Shown here in pieces: positions 4,001 to 46,691 of a DNA stretch of 46,691 nucleotides (positions are counted from its first letter, which is position 1; every line of letters starts with the position of its first letter). The stretch lies in the IMG/VR virus record IMGVR_UViG_3300045988_173330. One strand, given 5' to 3'. The notes under the pieces are model-generated. The model was not told the origin of the DNA. It saw nothing but the letters and a program-made list of their open reading frames with translations, and searched no databases. The position numbers were made by a program, and so were the translations under genes. The DNA comes from a virus.

Positions 4001-4381
4001 TTACTTCTGCTTTTGGATTAATATTTGAATTGTTCTTTCTTTCTCAGTTATCACTCTTTCTTTTTCCTCCAATAGAGCGTTGAGATGCTCTATCTCTTTG
4101 CGACACTCGCTTAAAGTTATATCTCCAGAGATTTTATTACCATTGCCCTTAACTTGATGACCTATATTAATTCCAGAAGAGTTTATATCTCTATCAAAAA
4201 AATAATCTATTGGTACATTAAAATAATCTGCTATAATTTCCAGGTTGTCGGCACCAGGAATCGAAGTGTTATTAAGCCAAACATATAAGTTTGATTTAGA
4301 TATACTTGTGTCTTTCAAAAACTGTGCTTGACTGATCTTTCTATCTTCAAATAATCTTCTTATTTTATCAGGATTAAACAT
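4001..4381 (-). CDS. XRE-family HTH repressor with C-terminal coiled coil (immunity-switch candidate)
   Basis: 126 aa. ISQAQFLKDTSISKSNLYVWLNNTSIPGADNLEIIADYFNVPIDYFF is a classic Cro/CI-type HTH. It is divergent from the early operon. Confidence 0.8.
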   Translation of the reverse strand: MFNPDKIRRLFEDRKISQAQFLKDTSISKSNLYVWLNNTSIPGADNLEIIADYFNVPIDYFFDRDINSSGINIGHQVKGNGNKISGDITLSECRKEIEHLNALLEEKERVITEKERTIQILIQKQK

Positions 4382-4727: not shown

Positions 4728-4988
4728 ATGGAGGAATTTAAAAGAATACCCTTCGGTGGTAATCCCTATGCGGATTTTGAGTTTTTCAAGGTAGAATTAA
4801 AAGTCTGCGATGTGAAATACACTCCAGAGCAGATTTATGCACACTTTGAATTCACAAGTGGGTACAAAGTAGATGTACAAGGTACATTTTATCCCTCACT
4901 AATTCGCAAAGCTATAGTTCAAGTTCGCGAAATGGAGCAAGCACATATTACAAACTCATCACGTTGTGAAATTCATGCCGATAACTAA
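4728..4988 (+). CDS. Hypothetical early protein
   Basis: 86-aa ORF in the operon series. Confidence 0.5.
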   Translation: MEEFKRIPFGGNPYADFEFFKVELKVCDVKYTPEQIYAHFEFTSGYKVDVQGTFYPSLIRKAIVQVREMEQAHITNSSRCEIHADN

Positions 4989-5532
4989 CATCGAGTTCTA
5001 CAACACCCCCGAAGGTGATGTGATGATTAAAGAACTTGGGCATGCGGCAGTTGTGCTTTGTGAGGACAACCGCCCGACCATCGAGTACATGCTTGCTGTC
5101 ATCAGGGACAGATACCCGAAAGCACATGCCAGGTTAATGCAACTTTACTCCAGTAGTACAATGAATAGGTGGCATTATGAATTCCGGGTAGTTCACCGCT
5201 TCATCCGCTGCAACTTCGGCGAGTATGACCAATACAACCTTGACATCAATAAGGATGGACAATTCGTATTCGAGGAGGTAAAGTGCCCACTACGAGGTGA
5301 GTGCGAACATGAGGGAGTGATTTGTCGCCCGGAACTTGACACGGCACTAACCGCCCGTGAGATGAATGTTTTCAGACTCATCGCTTCCAATTGCCAGACG
5401 GATGATATTGCAGCGGAACTGCACATATCACCTTATACGGTGAACCGCCATCGGGAGAATATCAAAGCGAAAATCAAGGTTCATAATGTGAGTGAGATGA
5501 TTTCTTACTGGCATCAGAACCAGATGAAATGA
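4966..5532 (+). CDS. LuxR/GerE-type HTH transcription regulator with Cys/His-rich linker
   Basis: 188 aa. The C-terminal REMNVFRLIASNCQTDDIAAELHISPYTVNRHRENIKAKIKV is a GerE-type HTH. It is preceded by VKCPLRGECEHEGVIC. Confidence 0.75.
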   Translation: MKFMPITNIEFYNTPEGDVMIKELGHAAVVLCEDNRPTIEYMLAVIRDRYPKAHARLMQLYSSSTMNRWHYEFRVVHRFIRCNFGEYDQYNLDINKDGQFVFEEVKCPLRGECEHEGVICRPELDTALTAREMNVFRLIASNCQTDDIAAELHISPYTVNRHRENIKAKIKVHNVSEMISYWHQNQMK

Positions 5533-17565: not shown

Positions 17566-19293
17566 ATGGACGAAAATGTCTGGGAAGAGGTCATACAGGT
17601 CAATCCGGCGCAGGCGGCATTTCTCGTGATGCCGTACAAGAACGGATATGTCATCTACTCGCGTGCCACGGGTAAATCATTCATTACCGGTGCCGTGATA
17701 GATGACAACATCCGGCTCATGCCGCGAGGGATTACTACGCTCACCCAGGCCACCATTGGGCAGGCGTTGACTAAAACCCTGCCTTCAGCGTTCAAGATGC
17801 TGGAGATGCTCGGTTATAAGCAGTGGGATCCGGTCAGCAAGACCGGTGACTATGTGGTTTGTCGCAAACCTATTGAGGGATGGTATAAACCTTACGAGCA
17901 CATCATGTCGTTTGAGTATGGTATCAGCTTCAGTAACGGGCATATGCTCTACATACTTACCCAGGGCGGCAACAGCCGCGGTCCGAATGCGGACTACAAC
18001 ATCACCGATGAAGCGCTGACACTCGACAAGGAGAAGTTCGACCAGGAGGCGGCGCCGACCAACCGTGGCAATGAGCATATCTTCGGGCGCAAGTCGGAGC
18101 ATCCGGTGCTGAAGCACCACGGCAACACCTTCCTCTCCTCCATGCCGTACACGCCTGAACAGAAATGGTTGCTTGAACCGGCCAAGTATTATGAAGAAGA
18201 ACGCGGCATCCGGCTGTTTGATGTCTGGAACAGGATTGTGCGGTTACAGATGCAGCTCATTGATGCAAGGATTGCGAATGACGCCGGACTGTTCAAGGAG
18301 ATCTGGAACGAGACCGTCCGTCTCAGGCAAAGTATCACGCCGTTCGTTTCACGTGACGGCACGCTCTTTATCCTTGGCTCCATCTTCGACAACATCGCCA
18401 ATGTGGGCATGAACTATATCCTAAACCAGTACAAGGTGATGGATAAACTTTCCTTCATGATAGAGATCCTAAACTTCATGGTGGATAAGATTGACAGCTG
18501 CTACTACCAGTTGGATGAACGCCATATCTATTACAATGCGACCAATGACGACTATATCCGTGACTTTGCCGAAGATCATAACTACAACTGGCAGCAGCTT
18601 GCCAATAACGATGACAGCCGGCGTGACCTGGACTGCAATCCCAACCAGCCGATAGAGCTGACACCCGACTGGGGTAGTGCCGCTTCATTCCTGGAAGTGG
18701 CGCAGGAGCGCAACTATGACTTCGTGACGAAGATGCTGACACGTGAGCCGGTGGACAACAACATCAACGAGTTCTTCGTCAAGCGTGATGAAGAGGATGA
18801 CACCATGGTGAACGCGCTGATGGACAAGTTCTGCCACTACTACCGTAACCATATCAACAAACACCTGCATTATTACCGTGACCGTTACGGGGATGCACGC
18901 CGTGCCAACAACAAGAAGTCCTACAACGAGCTTGCCATCGAGCGTCTGGAGAAACACGGGTGGACGGTGGAACAACACACCCATGCGGGCATGGAGCCGC
19001 CGCAGCATGACAAGTACCTGCTCTGGGCTTCCATCCTGGCAGAGAAAGACGAACGGTTCCCGAAGAAGCGTTTCAACGGCTCGAAATGCAAATATACACT
19101 CATCTCCATGAACAATACGCGTGTCATCGAGGACCGCGAGGGGCGTTTTGCCAAGGATAAGCGCAGCGAGCGTAACCAGTCCATCCTTCCGGAAGAAGCC
19201 ACCCACTTCGGTGATGCGGTGGATAAGCGTGTATGGACGAAGTACGGGCACCTACTCAGGCAGGCATACGGATTCGTGGACGCACGTATCTGA
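17566..19293 (+). CDS. terL: Terminase large subunit
   Basis: 575 aa. Walker-A-like YSRATGKSF near the N-terminus; size and context are typical of TerL. Confidence 0.8.
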   Translation: MDENVWEEVIQVNPAQAAFLVMPYKNGYVIYSRATGKSFITGAVIDDNIRLMPRGITTLTQATIGQALTKTLPSAFKMLEMLGYKQWDPVSKTGDYVVCRKPIEGWYKPYEHIMSFEYGISFSNGHMLYILTQGGNSRGPNADYNITDEALTLDKEKFDQEAAPTNRGNEHIFGRKSEHPVLKHHGNTFLSSMPYTPEQKWLLEPAKYYEEERGIRLFDVWNRIVRLQMQLIDARIANDAGLFKEIWNETVRLRQSITPFVSRDGTLFILGSIFDNIANVGMNYILNQYKVMDKLSFMIEILNFMVDKIDSCYYQLDERHIYYNATNDDYIRDFAEDHNYNWQQLANNDDSRRDLDCNPNQPIELTPDWGSAASFLEVAQERNYDFVTKMLTREPVDNNINEFFVKRDEEDDTMVNALMDKFCHYYRNHINKHLHYYRDRYGDARRANNKKSYNELAIERLEKHGWTVEQHTHAGMEPPQHDKYLLWASILAEKDERFPKKRFNGSKCKYTLISMNNTRVIEDREGRFAKDKRSERNQSILPEEATHFGDAVDKRVWTKYGHLLRQAYGFVDARI

Positions 19294-20119
19294 TTCACCT
19301 CATACACATACATCCGCAATCACAATCGCAATGCTTATGGCAGGACTCGCAACGTCCGCAATGGGAATCGCTGCACTTTAGGACAGAACGCCGTGTGCAG
19401 GACTGGCCGAGGGGCATCCTCCTTGTCATATTTCCTTGTTTCTTGCGCTTTTGGTTGCGTTTTTGGATAGGGCGCGGTCGGCAGAAACTTCCGTTTCTGT
19501 TTCCATTCGGATGGAAAGCGGGGTATTCTGTATTCATTATCAAAGAAGTATATTTATTATAACATTCATTAACAAAGAGCACGGCGCGCGCAAAATCCGT
19601 ACTGAAGGAACAGGCAGGCAAATCTATTTCCTCCAGTACGGATTTTGCGCGTCTCAGCGGTAAGTAGCGGCAGCTACTTGCGTTTGTCCGCATCCATGCA
19701 GGTAGACCCGGTCTTTTCTGTTTCAATAGCTAAGGTAGAGACCGTAGAGCGGTAAGCGTTCCGCTTGGCGTGCCTCCGTTTCTTTTCCGCAACTCCTTTT
19801 CATTTCCTGCATCTCTGTATGCGGTCAGGTAGTCTTTTGAGTCCGCAAATGTAGGGCACCGGTCTGACAAACAAGGTCGGGCGTTGTCCGCTAAAAAATC
19901 TCCAGCCCTACGGGTAGTATTCAAGCCTTCGGTTTTAGTCGGAACCTTGCGGAATGTCATCCTCGGCACCTCAATTATTGCGGCATCAAAAGGCAACCAT
20001 ACCGCACGTCATACAGACACGCCGGAATAAAAAAAAAGTCGTTCTGGGAAACGGAGAAAATTAAAAAAGGCTCCACCCGACGACTCCAGAAATCCAGAAT
20101 AAATTAAAAACTTACAGTT
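19294..20119. ncRNA. ORF-poor, hairpin-dense region; candidate structured RNA(s) or DNA-level site, strand unresolved
   Basis: About 830 bp with no convincing ORF on either strand. Stable tetraloop hairpins: CAGAAAC-TTCC-GTTTCTG, TTTCCAT-TCGG-ATGGAAA, AAGTAGC-GGCA-GCTACTT, plus the 24-bp-stem hairpin at 19587-19651. A minus-strand TACATTTG box lies at 19846-19853. Confidence 0.3.
19587..19651. repeat. Long hairpin / inverted repeat (24-bp arms, one mismatch, 17-nt loop)
   Basis: CGCGCAAAATCCGTACTGaAGGAA (19587-19610) versus TTCCTcCAGTACGGATTTTGCGCG (19628-19651). No adjacent U-tract on either strand. Confidence 0.8.
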
Positions 20120-20680
20120 ATGGCAGCAAAAAGAAACATCCCCGAAGCATGGAAAAATCAATGGTCTAAATTCATGTTTAACTTCTTTGATTACTTGCCT
20201 ACCAAGTACGAGGCTAACAAACGGGAGTGGTCTATCCGCAGGATGATATGGGATTTTAAGGACGGGAAGCGCAGTGCGTCTGTGGCAGAACTTGTAGCGA
20301 AGAAGATGCGCGAGCAGTTCGGTGCGGAGGTTTGCAACGTGACGTTGGTCTGCATACCAGCCAGTAGCGGAGAGAAGAACGAAATCAGATACAAGGCTTT
20401 TGCCGAAGAGGTGGCACGGCTGACGGGGTGCAGGAATGCGTACAAAGCAATTACCATTGAGGGTGGACGGCTTGCCATCCATGAGACGAAAGCGGCCAAG
20501 ACGGTGCAGACGGTGGAGGTCATCAAGTTTGACAAGCGTTTTTTCAAGGGTAAGAAATGCCTTGTATTCGATGATATACTGACGCAGGGGCATAGTTACG
20601 CACGGTTTGCGTGTGCACTTGAAACGCTTGGGGCAGAGGTTTTGGGAGGCTATTTCTTAGGCAAGACAATTCTTTTATAA
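20120..20680 (+). CDS. ComF/GntX-like type I phosphoribosyltransferase-domain protein
   Basis: 186 aa. PRPP-binding motif KKCLVFDDILTQGHSYARF. Confidence 0.75.
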   Translation: MAAKRNIPEAWKNQWSKFMFNFFDYLPTKYEANKREWSIRRMIWDFKDGKRSASVAELVAKKMREQFGAEVCNVTLVCIPASSGEKNEIRYKAFAEEVARLTGCRNAYKAITIEGGRLAIHETKAAKTVQTVEVIKFDKRFFKGKKCLVFDDILTQGHSYARFACALETLGAEVLGGYFLGKTILL

Positions 20681-20699
20681 CAATTTAATCCATACAATT

Positions 20700-21290
20700 A
20701 TGAATACTCTTTTTGATAACGATTGCCGCTACATGAGCGACAGCGAACTGATTTACGAAATCAGCAACAACAGACAGATTGTTTCGGACATCGAACGCAG
20801 CAACGAAGTGATAGACCTTGAAAAATTGTTTTCCTCTTTGACTCCTGGACGCAGGAGGGTAGCCGTGGCAGCCGTGGAGATGTACAAGAGACAACTGTCG
20901 CAGCAGGTGGAACGTAGGCAAATAAGGATGAGCAAAGACGTATACGAACTGATGGAGCCGTTGATAGGAGATTTGCCGAATGAGGAATTTTGGGTAGTGT
21001 CGATAAACCAAGCCGGACGGATTATCAAGAAAGTACGCATATCGGTAGGCGGTATTGACCAGACTTCAGCGGATATAAGACTGATTATGCGCGTGCTGAT
21101 TGATACGGGGGCGGTGCAGTTCGCAGCGGTGCACAACCATCCGAGTGGCAACAGCCGACCGAGCAATGAGGACAAGAGGCTGACGGAGCAACTTAAAAAG
21201 GCGGCAGGGTTATTCAATATTAGGATGATAGACCATGTGATTATAACGAATGGTGGATATTACAGTTTTGGCGATGAGGGGCTGATTTGA
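20700..21290 (+). CDS. radC: RadC-like JAB/MPN-domain protein
   Basis: 196 aa. JAMM motif AAVHNHPSGNSRPSNEDKRLT. Confidence 0.9.
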   Translation: MNTLFDNDCRYMSDSELIYEISNNRQIVSDIERSNEVIDLEKLFSSLTPGRRRVAVAAVEMYKRQLSQQVERRQIRMSKDVYELMEPLIGDLPNEEFWVVSINQAGRIIKKVRISVGGIDQTSADIRLIMRVLIDTGAVQFAAVHNHPSGNSRPSNEDKRLTEQLKKAAGLFNIRMIDHVIITNGGYYSFGDEGLI

Positions 21291-21460: not shown

Positions 21461-21468
21461 TATCTTTG
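21461..21468 (+). promoter_or_regulatory. -7 promoter box TATCTTTG (TATCTTTGCAG)
   Basis: Exact TAnnTTTG, 27 nt upstream of the ATG at 21495. Confidence 0.55.
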
Positions 21469-21494: not shown

Positions 21495-21731
21495 ATGCCA
21501 ACAATTTTAATTTTATTCGGTTTGAAGTTTAGAATTTATGTACGTGACCACGAACCGGTGCATGTACATGTACTCAGTCAAGACGGTGAAGCCAAGTTCC
21601 AGGTAGGTGATGAAATCCGGTTGATGGTCAATAAAGGAATGAAGCCCAAAGACATAAAACTGGCTGAGTCTATTATTGAAGAGAACAAAGAGTTGATTAT
21701 TACAGAATGGGTTAAGATATACGGCAAATAA
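21495..21731 (+). CDS. DUF4160-family protein
   Basis: 78 aa. MPTILILFGLKFRIYVRDHEPVHVHV... follows the family pattern (N-terminal MPTI..., HxPxHxH). Confidence 0.8.
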   Translation: MPTILILFGLKFRIYVRDHEPVHVHVLSQDGEAKFQVGDEIRLMVNKGMKPKDIKLAESIIEENKELIITEWVKIYGK

Positions 21732-21764
21732 GCCGTATATCTCTATACATAGAAAGGAGTGATT

Positions 21765-22172
21765 ATGGTAGCGAAAAAAGTTTGGTTCGAAGGTGAACGA
21801 ATCTACATCGAAACTGATGACGGTCGTACGTTGTGGCAGTCAATCTTGTATTATCAAAGATTGAGGAATGCCACCAAAGAGCAGCGCGAGGATTATGAGC
21901 TGGGAGCTTTCGGCATTCACTGGGAAGAGATTGACGAGGATGTTTCTTACGAGAGCTTTGAATATGATGATCCAGAACCGGCAGGTATCTCCCGCTTGTT
22001 CCTTACACACCCGGAGATAAACGCTTCGGCTGTTGCCCGACGGATGGGGATGCAGCAGAGTTTGTTGGCACAGTATATACGGGGAATTAAACGTCCCTCA
22101 AAAGAACGGGAGCAGGCGATATTGAATACGGTGCGTGAAATCGGAAAGGAATTGAGCGGTATTTCAATTTAA
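21765..22172 (+). CDS. DUF2442-family protein fused to a C-terminal XRE-like HTH
   Basis: ATG at 21765 preferred over the GTG at 21759. LRNATKEQREDYELGAFGIHWEEIDEDVSYESF is the DUF2442 pattern. The C-terminal SAVARRMGMQQSLLAQYIRGIKRPS is HTH-like. Confidence 0.75.
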   Translation: MVAKKVWFEGERIYIETDDGRTLWQSILYYQRLRNATKEQREDYELGAFGIHWEEIDEDVSYESFEYDDPEPAGISRLFLTHPEINASAVARRMGMQQSLLAQYIRGIKRPSKEREQAILNTVREIGKELSGISI

Positions 22173-46636: not shown

Positions 46637-46691
46637 TGGAAAATCCAGTGTAAGCTGCCCCCTAAAACCAAGCGATTCTGCCCCCTTAAAA
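46637..46691. repeat. Right terminal inverted repeat (55 bp)
   Basis: tggaaaatccagtgtaagctgccccctaaaaccaagcgattctgcccccttaaaa is the exact reverse complement of 1-55. Confidence 0.97.

Follow-up and report, generated by a model that had tools for sequence, protein, structure and literature searches.

A wobble-poor, covarying hairpin upstream of accessory genes in Bacteroidaceae phages and conjugative elements is a candidate single-strand promoter

We analyzed a 46,691-nucleotide stretch of viral DNA (IMG/VR record IMGVR_UViG_3300045988_173330; here, the window), which is a temperate siphovirus-like phage of Bacteroides/Phocaeicola, and focused on the 826 bases at 19294-20119. This gap separates an open reading frame (ORF) for a 575-aa protein, which ends at 19293, from an ORF for a phosphoribosyltransferase (PRTase), which starts at 20120. 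The right-hand third of the gap (19782-20059) consists of an imperfect hairpin of ~270 nt, referred to as module B, which is the main subject of this report. Searches of Pfam, PHROGs, NCBIfam, and PDB returned nothing for the 575-aa protein (17566-19293, plus strand). We consider it a plausible large terminase subunit: it contains a Walker-A-like ATGKS motif, an HNH endonuclease gene lies upstream, and a relative with ~26% identity has a weak hit to phrog_2 (terminase large subunit; E = 0.0026). On the other side of the gap, the PRTase gene (20120-20680, plus strand; PF00156, E = 9e-5; PADLOC ShosT, E = 1.8e-10) is followed by a RadC/JAB gene (20700-21290, plus strand; RadC, PF04002, E = 3.8e-37). 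The PRTase also matches PsyrT, more weakly than the Shosta toxin ShosT. The PRTase and RadC/JAB pair could be a prophage-borne defense or anti-defense module. In relatives, the downstream slot holds ArdC-N proteins (PF08401, E = 8.7e-7 and 1.2e-7) and also a weak DUF932 match.

A sequence-only reading of the window had described the gap as free of plausible ORFs and dense in hairpins, and had proposed that it is a large structured RNA or a packaging or recombination site. The ORF-free gap is real. Within the gap, ORFs occur exclusively on the minus strand, from 19996 to 19730 (88 aa) and from 19726 to 19295 (143 aa), and they lie in one frame with a single TAG between them. Neither ORF has a match in Pfam or PHROGs, the DNA of relatives that resembles these ORFs falls in differing frames, and an 82-nt indel breaks the 143-aa ORF in the fecal phage scaffold MT836146. 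For these reasons, we rejected a protein-coding reading of the two ORFs, including read-through of the in-frame TAG, and conclude that 19294-20119 is non-coding; with no family match and with frames that shift among relatives, no conserved protein was found in the homologous regions. In Rfam 15, no covariance model matched any part of the window at the gathering score, and at E ≤ 10 only chance-level matches were obtained in 19100-20300. A tRNA/tmRNA scan found none. The sequence-only reading, for its part, could not assign the gap to a known RNA family by eye and saw no tRNA-like T-arm.

Folded as RNA, the whole gap had z = −5.0 on the plus strand and z = −7.8 on the minus strand relative to dinucleotide shuffles, and on neither strand was any of 20 shuffles as good. 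Compensatory changes among relatives were present in most hairpins of the gap, and this covariation analysis of homologous regions supports most of the helices listed in the sequence-only reading. A gap of 700-830 nt is kept at the same position in 80 relatives of the putative terminase (69-100% identity). Among these relatives the gap is modular, with a left part, module A (19294-19781), and module B (19782-20059). We conclude that the gap is a composite non-coding region and not one large RNA gene.

In an alignment of 26 diverse phage copies, module B forms 11 nested helices with a total of 62 pairs. In these, 19788-98 pairs with 20037-47, 19808-14 with 20017-23, 19831-39 with 19987-95, 19842-46 with 19980-84, 19847-52 with 19968-75, 19857-60 with 19964-67, 19872-77 with 19944-49, 19887-95 with 19934-43, 19897-99 with 19919-21, 19904-07 with 19912-15, and 19926-27 with 19931-32. 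The arms are imperfect, with conserved bulges. In the 26-copy alignment, 89.3% of the cells were paired, compared with 78.4% in shuffles and 39-49% when the partners were slid, and both sides changed in 34 of the 62 pairs. When copies from integrative and conjugative elements (ICEs; see below) were included, the paired cells amounted to 91.4%, compared with 71.7% in shuffles, and both sides changed in 40 of the 62 pairs. The covariation score of this combined alignment was 0.456 compared with 0.124 in shuffles, and none of 500 shuffles scored as high. Over both alignments, sliding the partners left 36-52% of cells paired compared with the 89-91% observed.

To follow module B in other genomes, we built a covariance model (R1) from its alignment and used an E-value limit of 0.001 in locus searches. 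In the window, R1 scored 205.7 bits at module B, which is the sole forward-strand match; a weak minus-strand match at the same coordinates is the hairpin matching its own reverse complement. We then asked whether module B shows the strand-specific pairing expected of an RNA, i.e., G.U tolerated and A.C avoided. It does not: 80 unique model-aligned copies contained 4414 Watson-Crick, 73 G.U, and 72 A.C cells, so that each type of wobble accounts for ~1.5% of 4836 paired cells, while the helices cycle through three to four Watson-Crick types. Pairing that is symmetric and poor in wobble despite massive covariation argues that the pairing occurs at the level of DNA and not RNA. Folded as DNA, the minus strand of module B reached −54.3 kcal/mol (z = −5.4) and the plus strand −48.5 kcal/mol (z = −4.6). 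We consider it highly probable that 19782-20059 forms a conserved hairpin that acts at the level of DNA in the regulation of the accessory genes downstream.

The stem of module B contains conserved promoter elements. The minus-strand −7 box TACATTTG at 19846-19853, which the sequence-only reading had pointed out, fits the consensus TAnnTTTG and lies on the left arm of the hairpin. Among 107 unique copies, 103 have a minus-strand TAnnTTTG at this fixed offset together with [CT]TTG at a distance of 18-20 nt; the −7 box is TACCTTTG in 70 copies and TACATTTG in 31. Over all copies, this −33-like element (19873-19876, minus strand) is found 18-21 nt upstream of the −7 box, with the sequence CTTG in phages and TTTG in ICEs (...CCTTTTG), and is located within the invariant and fully paired helix 19872-77/19944-49. 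A −7 TAnnTTTG and a −33 TTTG are elements of sigma-ABfr, the primary sigma factor of Bacteroidetes (PMC7366714). The helices that bear the boxes are invariant in sequence, whereas the other helices of module B covary freely; that the helix with the −7 box almost never covaries points to a constraint on its sequence. A plus-strand TAnnTTTG was found in none of the 107 unique copies between −170 relative to the tip motif and +260, an interval that reaches the start codon, whereas other genes of the window have plus-strand boxes ~30 nt upstream.

Read 5' to 3', the minus strand, which is the template for the PRTase gene, runs through the right arm, the tip, and the left arm, and on the left arm the −33 element is nearer to the tip and the −7 box nearer to the base. 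This order implies that the right arm would be the template in a folded strand and that transcription would then reach the genes. In duplex DNA, the same boxes face away from the PRTase and RadC genes. Toward the tip, a minus-strand T6 tract lies ~20 nt upstream of the −33 element and is UP-element-like. The tip itself (19893-19922) consists of an invariant AAAAAATCTCCA, a small covarying hairpin, and TAGTATTC; the tip motif is invariant in all 26 diverse copies, while the small stem changes from CCC/GGG to CCT/AGG. The hairpin GGTT-ttagtcgg-AACC proposed earlier for this part of the gap is present as a sequence at 19931-19946 but has no covariation support, and its bases pair elsewhere in the conserved fold. 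Near the base of the right arm, the plus strand carries an A9 tract (20029-20037), in which the A-run is invariant. In the presumed leader, a possible second plus-strand hairpin can be read from the sequence, with GTCGT (20038-42) opposite ACGAC (20080-84) and GGAG (20053-56) opposite CTCC (20072-75), in a region that aligns poorly. Because its 5' arm overlaps the helix 19788-98/20037-47, the two would be alternatives.

Module B is widespread among phages. A search with a pattern derived from the tip identified >98 viral contigs and 38 species genomes. Many of these loci lie behind a different ORF of ~584 aa, which occupies the same position and has a Walker-A-like motif. Together, the 575-aa family and this second family appear to represent a little-described lineage of terminases in phages of Bacteroidaceae. 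R1 matched >90 Bacteroidaceae phage or prophage loci, each with one forward-strand copy, and the phage copies are located behind the two terminase-like families (~26% identical) and ahead of PRTase, ArdC-N, or RadC cassettes. Six chance pattern loci, including those labeled Nostoc and Deltaproteobacteria, gave no R1 match below E 0.001. When the regions upstream of module B were clustered across lineages, only small pieces were shared. In blastn against cultured phages and plasmids, the single match was the uncultured fecal phage scaffold MT836146.

The element is not restricted to phages. R1 placed it directly upstream of ardA and in the same orientation in six loci of different species (74-99 bits), two of which have adjoining TraM, TraN, TraO, and TraQ genes. 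One of the six was a genome hit in Sphingobacterium sp. MYb382 (99 bits), where ardA (PF07275, E = 9e-32) lies beside TraM, TraN, TraO, and TraQ. The other five came from the contexts of nine ArdA homologues, which we searched with R1. In Myroides odoratimimus (87 bits), Elizabethkingia anophelis (77 bits), and Sphingobacterium zhuxiongii (77 bits), the match ends at the ardA start codon, and in Chryseobacterium flavum (74 bits, with tra genes alongside) and Empedobacter brevis (87 bits), it is at most ~100 nt upstream of ardA. On the strand complementary to ardA, TACCTTTG and a complete −33 TTTG are retained in the copies from ICEs. Placed in the structure derived from phages, they comprise 295 Watson-Crick, 9 G.T, and 10 A.C cells. 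To the left of the promoter, phage lineages and ICEs have unrelated DNA, whereas the promoter and the complementary arm are conserved.

Further ArdA contexts gave lower scores. In Chitinophaga, a partial match (24 bits) precedes an ssb-ardA operon; in Chitinophaga sp. 22321 (L324, 2903-3028), the partial match and a long hairpin lie upstream of an operon of ssb, a 154-aa ORF, and ardA, and a PRTRC/ThiF/Prok-E2 gene cluster adjoins this operon. In Pedobacter, only the tip motif was matched (18 bits), upstream of a small ORF and ardA. In human-gut metagenome contigs that presumably derive from Bacteroides (L325-L328, 3600-4003, with ardA at 4001), the match just upstream of ardA was unconvincing (9.7 bits, E = 0.076), and a different hairpin of ~230 nt, in which no consensus −7 box is present, directly precedes ardA. 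In Bacteroidota, the long hairpins ahead of ardA may comprise several unrelated families.

Module A is kept only among close relatives and forms the region 3' of the putative terminase gene or operon. Its features are, in order, TCGCAAT-type repeats, a hairpin at 19408-25, two 12-nt direct repeats, two tetraloop hairpins, an AT-rich stretch, a long hairpin, and three more hairpins. The repeats, TCGCAA(T/C) or CCGCAAT, follow directly after the terminase-like stop codon with a spacing of ~21 nt (19310-19375; direct repeats D2 and D3). They are conserved only in close relatives with a terminase identity of at least 96%, one relative (L048, 5729-5850) has one additional 21-nt unit, and they are possibly protein-binding sites. 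The GC-rich hairpin at 19408-19425 (plus strand) was detected in the terminator scan and, with the T-rich tail behind it, resembles a terminator of the upstream operon; relatives have a different self-complementary sequence at the same place. The next segment (19470-19517, plus strand) starts with an invariant ATAGGGCGCGGT, after which two tetraloop hairpins adjoin. In the first, CAGAAAC-TTCC-GTTTCTG (19482-19499), the closing pair varies between C-G, A-T, and G-C among relatives, and wobble is strongly skewed (G.U 11 versus A.C 1), while the second, TTTCCAT-TCGG-ATGGAAA (19500-19517), showed no variation. The AT-rich stretch occupies 19520-19580.

The long hairpin at 19587-19651 is 65 nt long with 24-bp arms (inverted repeat I3, 96% complementary) and is strand symmetric: nine pairs occur with at least two Watson-Crick types, and wobble amounts to G.U 33 versus A.C 31. 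Its base carries A- and T-tracts, and in lineages whose upstream terminase-like ORF is a different one, the motif GCGCGAAAAATCC...GGATTTTTCGCG is again present at the base, but around inner arms of unrelated sequence. Because of the symmetric wobble, the A/T-tracts, and the recurring base motif, this hairpin looks like a bidirectional terminator. A stretch of 82 nt (19566-19647), which includes most of the hairpin, is missing from the 99.3%-identical fecal phage scaffold MT836146.1, and none of the compared IMG/VR relatives of the terminase shows this absence. Either the stretch was truly deleted, or the hairpin may have collapsed during assembly.

Closer to module B, the small hairpin AAGTAGC-GGCA-GCTACTT (19662-19679, plus strand; G.U 21 versus A.C 8) has covarying stems (GTAGC, GAAGC, and TAAGC), precedes T-runs in other lineages, e.g., CTTTCTGTTTGTTTTTTTT, and looks like a plus-strand terminator. 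It is followed by the hairpin CCGGTCT...AGACCG at 19709-19744 (plus strand), in which five pairs occur with at least two Watson-Crick types and plus-strand G.U outnumbers A.C by 33 to 4, and by a hairpin at 19744-86 (plus strand; G.U 21 versus A.C 9). The G.U content of the hairpins next to module B is 15-27%. Because G.U far exceeds A.C in the hairpins at 19662-79, 19709-44, and 19744-86, we infer that these act in plus-strand RNA, and the left and middle hairpins of the gap would serve as terminators or stabilizers of a plus-strand transcript. The short hairpins named in the sequence-only reading thus exist, at the exact position (19500-19517) or within 1 nt of it (19482-19499 and 19662-19679), as does the 65-nt hairpin. 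The interpretation given there is right insofar as the gap is non-coding, densely structured, and conserved; a single large structured RNA is not supported, since the left and middle hairpins behave as ordinary plus-strand RNA or terminator hairpins and module B shows no excess of G.U over A.C and almost no wobble.

In single-strand promoters of the Frpo/ssi type, a stem-loop of the transferred strand reconstitutes −35 and −10 boxes ahead of ssb, psiB, and ardA; these promoters are active immediately on entry and silent once the DNA is double stranded (PMC9849209, PMC11541004, PMC6294495). We propose, with a probability of about 50%, that module B is the Bacteroidota counterpart of these promoters. 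Module B would belong to an undescribed, Bacteroidota-wide family of hairpins that immediately precede genes for establishment and anti-restriction on mobile elements. In the proposed mechanism, the minus strand, i.e., the template of the downstream genes, would become single stranded and fold into the hairpin, and the stem would rebuild a duplex sigma-ABfr promoter with the T-tract, the −33 [C/T]TTG, and the −7 TAnnTTTG all on the left arm. Host RNA polymerase would bind this duplex, use the right arm as the template, start at approximately plus-strand position 19988, leave the hairpin at its base, and continue into the PRTase and RadC genes, whose products may counter host defenses. Because the boxes face away from the genes once the DNA is double stranded, expression would be tied to the single-stranded state. 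The minus strand might become single stranded upon entry, upon resection of genome ends by host nucleases, or in the course of replication, as the lagging or the displaced strand; each of these occasions is speculative. That tailed phages with double-stranded DNA in gut Bacteroidaceae carry a promoter that works only in single-stranded DNA, is common to conjugative transposons, and switches on accessory genes of the anti-defense type (ShosT-like PRTase, RadC, and ArdC-N) is possible but doubtful.

Several points weigh against a promoter of this kind. Tailed phages inject double-stranded DNA, and a stage with a single-stranded minus strand is hard to place. The region is probably transcribed on the plus strand as well, since plus-strand RNA hairpins lie directly upstream, and the hairpin would then also exist in RNA. 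Phage copies have CTTG and not TTTG at −33, and the −7 duplex of the window's own copy holds two mismatches. The most conserved part of the hairpin, the tip with AAAAAATCTCCA...TAGTATTC, is not required by a simple hairpin promoter and is the least well explained part of module B. Moreover, the boxes of Frpo/ssi are defined on the transferred strand, while the ICE copies of module B are placed only relative to the ardA strand. Finally, blastn of 19782-20119 against 72,556 PLSDB plasmids, which are expected to include F-like and IncI plasmids, gave no match, so that the resemblance to Frpo/ssi is one of analogy and not homology.

Other explanations were weighed against the same data. Module B could be a large plus-strand structured RNA that acts as a cis-regulatory leader (riboswitch-like, RNase III-processed, or by antitermination) for the PRTase and ardA-type genes, with the rest of the gap forming part of the same leader. 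The strong covariation, the position of the element always directly 5' of a gene in one orientation, the upstream hairpins with a plus-strand RNA signature, and the highly conserved junction and tip sequences, as in complex RNAs, are all in line with a leader. We nevertheless consider it unlikely, because module B lacks a G.U excess (73 versus 72, 1.5% wobble) next to RNA hairpins with 15-27% G.U, because none of the 107 copies has a plus-strand promoter box upstream, and because a full minus-strand promoter is conserved in the stem within sequence-invariant helices; in addition, no Rfam family matches, and hairpins that resemble terminators stand between the element and the operon upstream of it. 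The earlier suggestion of a regulatory leader for the PRTase gene is close to the evidence with respect to a regulatory region, but the pairing of module B is unlike that of RNA. The same boxes could instead constitute a conventional promoter in double-stranded DNA that drives a minus-strand antisense or small RNA from ~19839 leftward to 19651-19587, with the inverted repeat as an operator or insulator. The sequence-only reading had suggested an antisense transcript through the hairpins, both boxes are conserved and match the consensus, and the bidirectional-terminator-like hairpin is located ~190-250 nt downstream on the minus strand. However, the hairpins in the path of this transcript are biased to the plus strand (wobble 33:4 and 21:8), the DNA to the left is unrelated across phage lineages and ICEs while the promoter and the complementary arm are conserved, and neither the complementarity of the opposite arm over ~100 nt nor the constant abutment on the start of an ardA-like or establishment gene is explained; we regard this possibility as quite improbable.

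A role of the gap in genome mechanics, i.e., as a cos/pac site, attP, a replication origin (with iterons, AT-rich stretch, and hairpins), or a phase-variable invertible promoter, appears very unlikely. The gap adjoins the putative terminase gene and contains repeats with a 21-nt spacing and the AT-rich stretch at 19520-19580, and the repeats at 19310-19375 could be a protein-binding or packaging site. Also, a promoter that faces the wrong way between inverted repeats resembles the invertons of Bacteroides. Yet module B occurs behind two terminase-like families and directly upstream of ardA on conjugative elements that lack a terminase, which argues against the cos/pac or attP site considered in the sequence-only reading, and contig ends share no break point inside the gap. 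As for an inverton, none of the 177 pattern-bearing loci has the opposite orientation relative to the flanking genes, the model-confirmed copies agree with this, and instead of homogenized repeats, the hairpin has imperfect arms in which the bulges are conserved.

With respect to the phage itself, the window encodes an S24 repressor, a DnaG-like primase, a head protease, an HNH endonuclease, a tape-measure protein, a holin, and a UvrD-like helicase. An assignment to Mu-like transposable phages was not supported by Pfam. The ends of the window form a perfect 55-nt terminal inverted repeat (1-55 and 46637-46691; TTTTAAGGGGGCAGAATCGCTTGGTTTTAGGGGGCAGCTTACACTGGATTTTCCA). In other viral contigs, the copies of this repeat are inverted and exactly 2566 nt apart. 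Because the repeats flank an invertible segment of ~2.5 kb elsewhere and this segment is absent here, the window looks like a contig broken at the repeats. Accordingly, we rejected the idea of a linear genome with terminal inverted repeats, in which protein-primed, strand-displacing replication would be a source of single-stranded DNA. Beyond the RadC gene, a DUF4160 gene followed by a DUF2442 and helix-turn-helix gene (21495-22172) forms a toxin-antitoxin-like pair, and the DUF4160 gene has its own plus-strand box, TATCTTTG, at 21461-21468. Among the early genes, 4966-5532 encodes a protein of 188 aa that has a GerE/LuxR helix-turn-helix (PF00196) at its C-terminus and the size of which would suit a phage-encoded sigma-like factor or late activator.

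If module B acts as proposed, a defined single-stranded state of a phage genome would be a regulatory signal, which is not described for any tailed phage, and the Bacteroidota would have their own family of leading-region single-strand promoters. The occurrence in phages is the surprising part, and the presence of the element in many gut siphophages raises the question of when phage DNA is single stranded and how the accessory genes are timed. In Flavobacteriia and Sphingobacteriia, to which clinically relevant genera such as Elizabethkingia and Myroides belong, the element precedes ardA on conjugative transposons, and the covariance model would provide a searchable marker for establishment and anti-defense islands in Bacteroidota. 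Even without a single-strand mechanism, module B is a widespread and strongly constrained regulatory module common to phages and conjugative elements.

Parts of the gap resemble several known systems. The hairpins at 19408-25, 19587-19651, and 19662-79 share with intrinsic terminators GC-clamped stems and T-rich tails or two-sided A/T-tracts, covary, and lie at the end of an operon, where termination is predicted; the 24-bp arms of the long hairpin and its extra GCGCG clamp outside the A/T-tracts are unusual for a terminator. The single-strand origins ssoA and ssoU of rolling-circle plasmids and G4-type priming signals are large imperfect hairpins of one strand that are read by RNA polymerase or primase, have conserved tip blocks, and are orientation specific. 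They prime synthesis of the complementary strand and are placed relative to the double-strand origin. Module B is likewise a large, imperfect, strand- and orientation-specific hairpin with a conserved tip; however, its constant neighbor is the start codon of an establishment gene, and the phage has its own DnaG-like primase. The early promoters of phage N4 are hairpins extruded from supercoiled DNA, with stems of 5-7 bp and loops of 3 nt, and are read by the virion RNA polymerase. Module B, as proposed here, would share with these promoters that a phage promoter is read only in the form of a hairpin, but it differs by its size of ~270 nt and its host-type −33/−7 boxes.

The closest resemblance is to Frpo/ssi, i.e., Frpo1 and Frpo2 of F and ssi of ColIb-P9. 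Both are long imperfect stem-loops (roughly 270-330 nt), both have their boxes on the template strand of the downstream genes, so that folding aims a duplex promoter at those genes, and in both, the promoter faces the wrong way in double-stranded DNA. Both also lie directly upstream of ardA, ssb, or other establishment and anti-defense genes, which in the case of module B applies to the ICE relatives, the match at ssb being partial. They differ in that the boxes of module B are of the sigma-ABfr type (−33 TTTG, −7 TAnnTTTG) and not −35 TTGACA and −10 TATAAT, that the tip of module B has an invariant three-way motif, and that the hosts are Bacteroidota. Also, the window copy belongs to a tailed phage and is followed by PRTase and RadC genes, and module B occurs in >90 tailed-phage or prophage genomes, which are not known to enter as single strands. 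The literature on single-strand promoters that we found concerns proteobacterial plasmids (F and ColIb-P9) and candidate sequences in other conjugative elements, none of it on Bacteroidota, and our search found no report of such promoters in Bacteroidota or tailed phages. Single-strand promoters explain how conjugative plasmids express anti-defense genes before their DNA is double stranded; a sequence-unrelated counterpart in Bacteroidota, if true, would extend this principle to the phylum that dominates the human gut.

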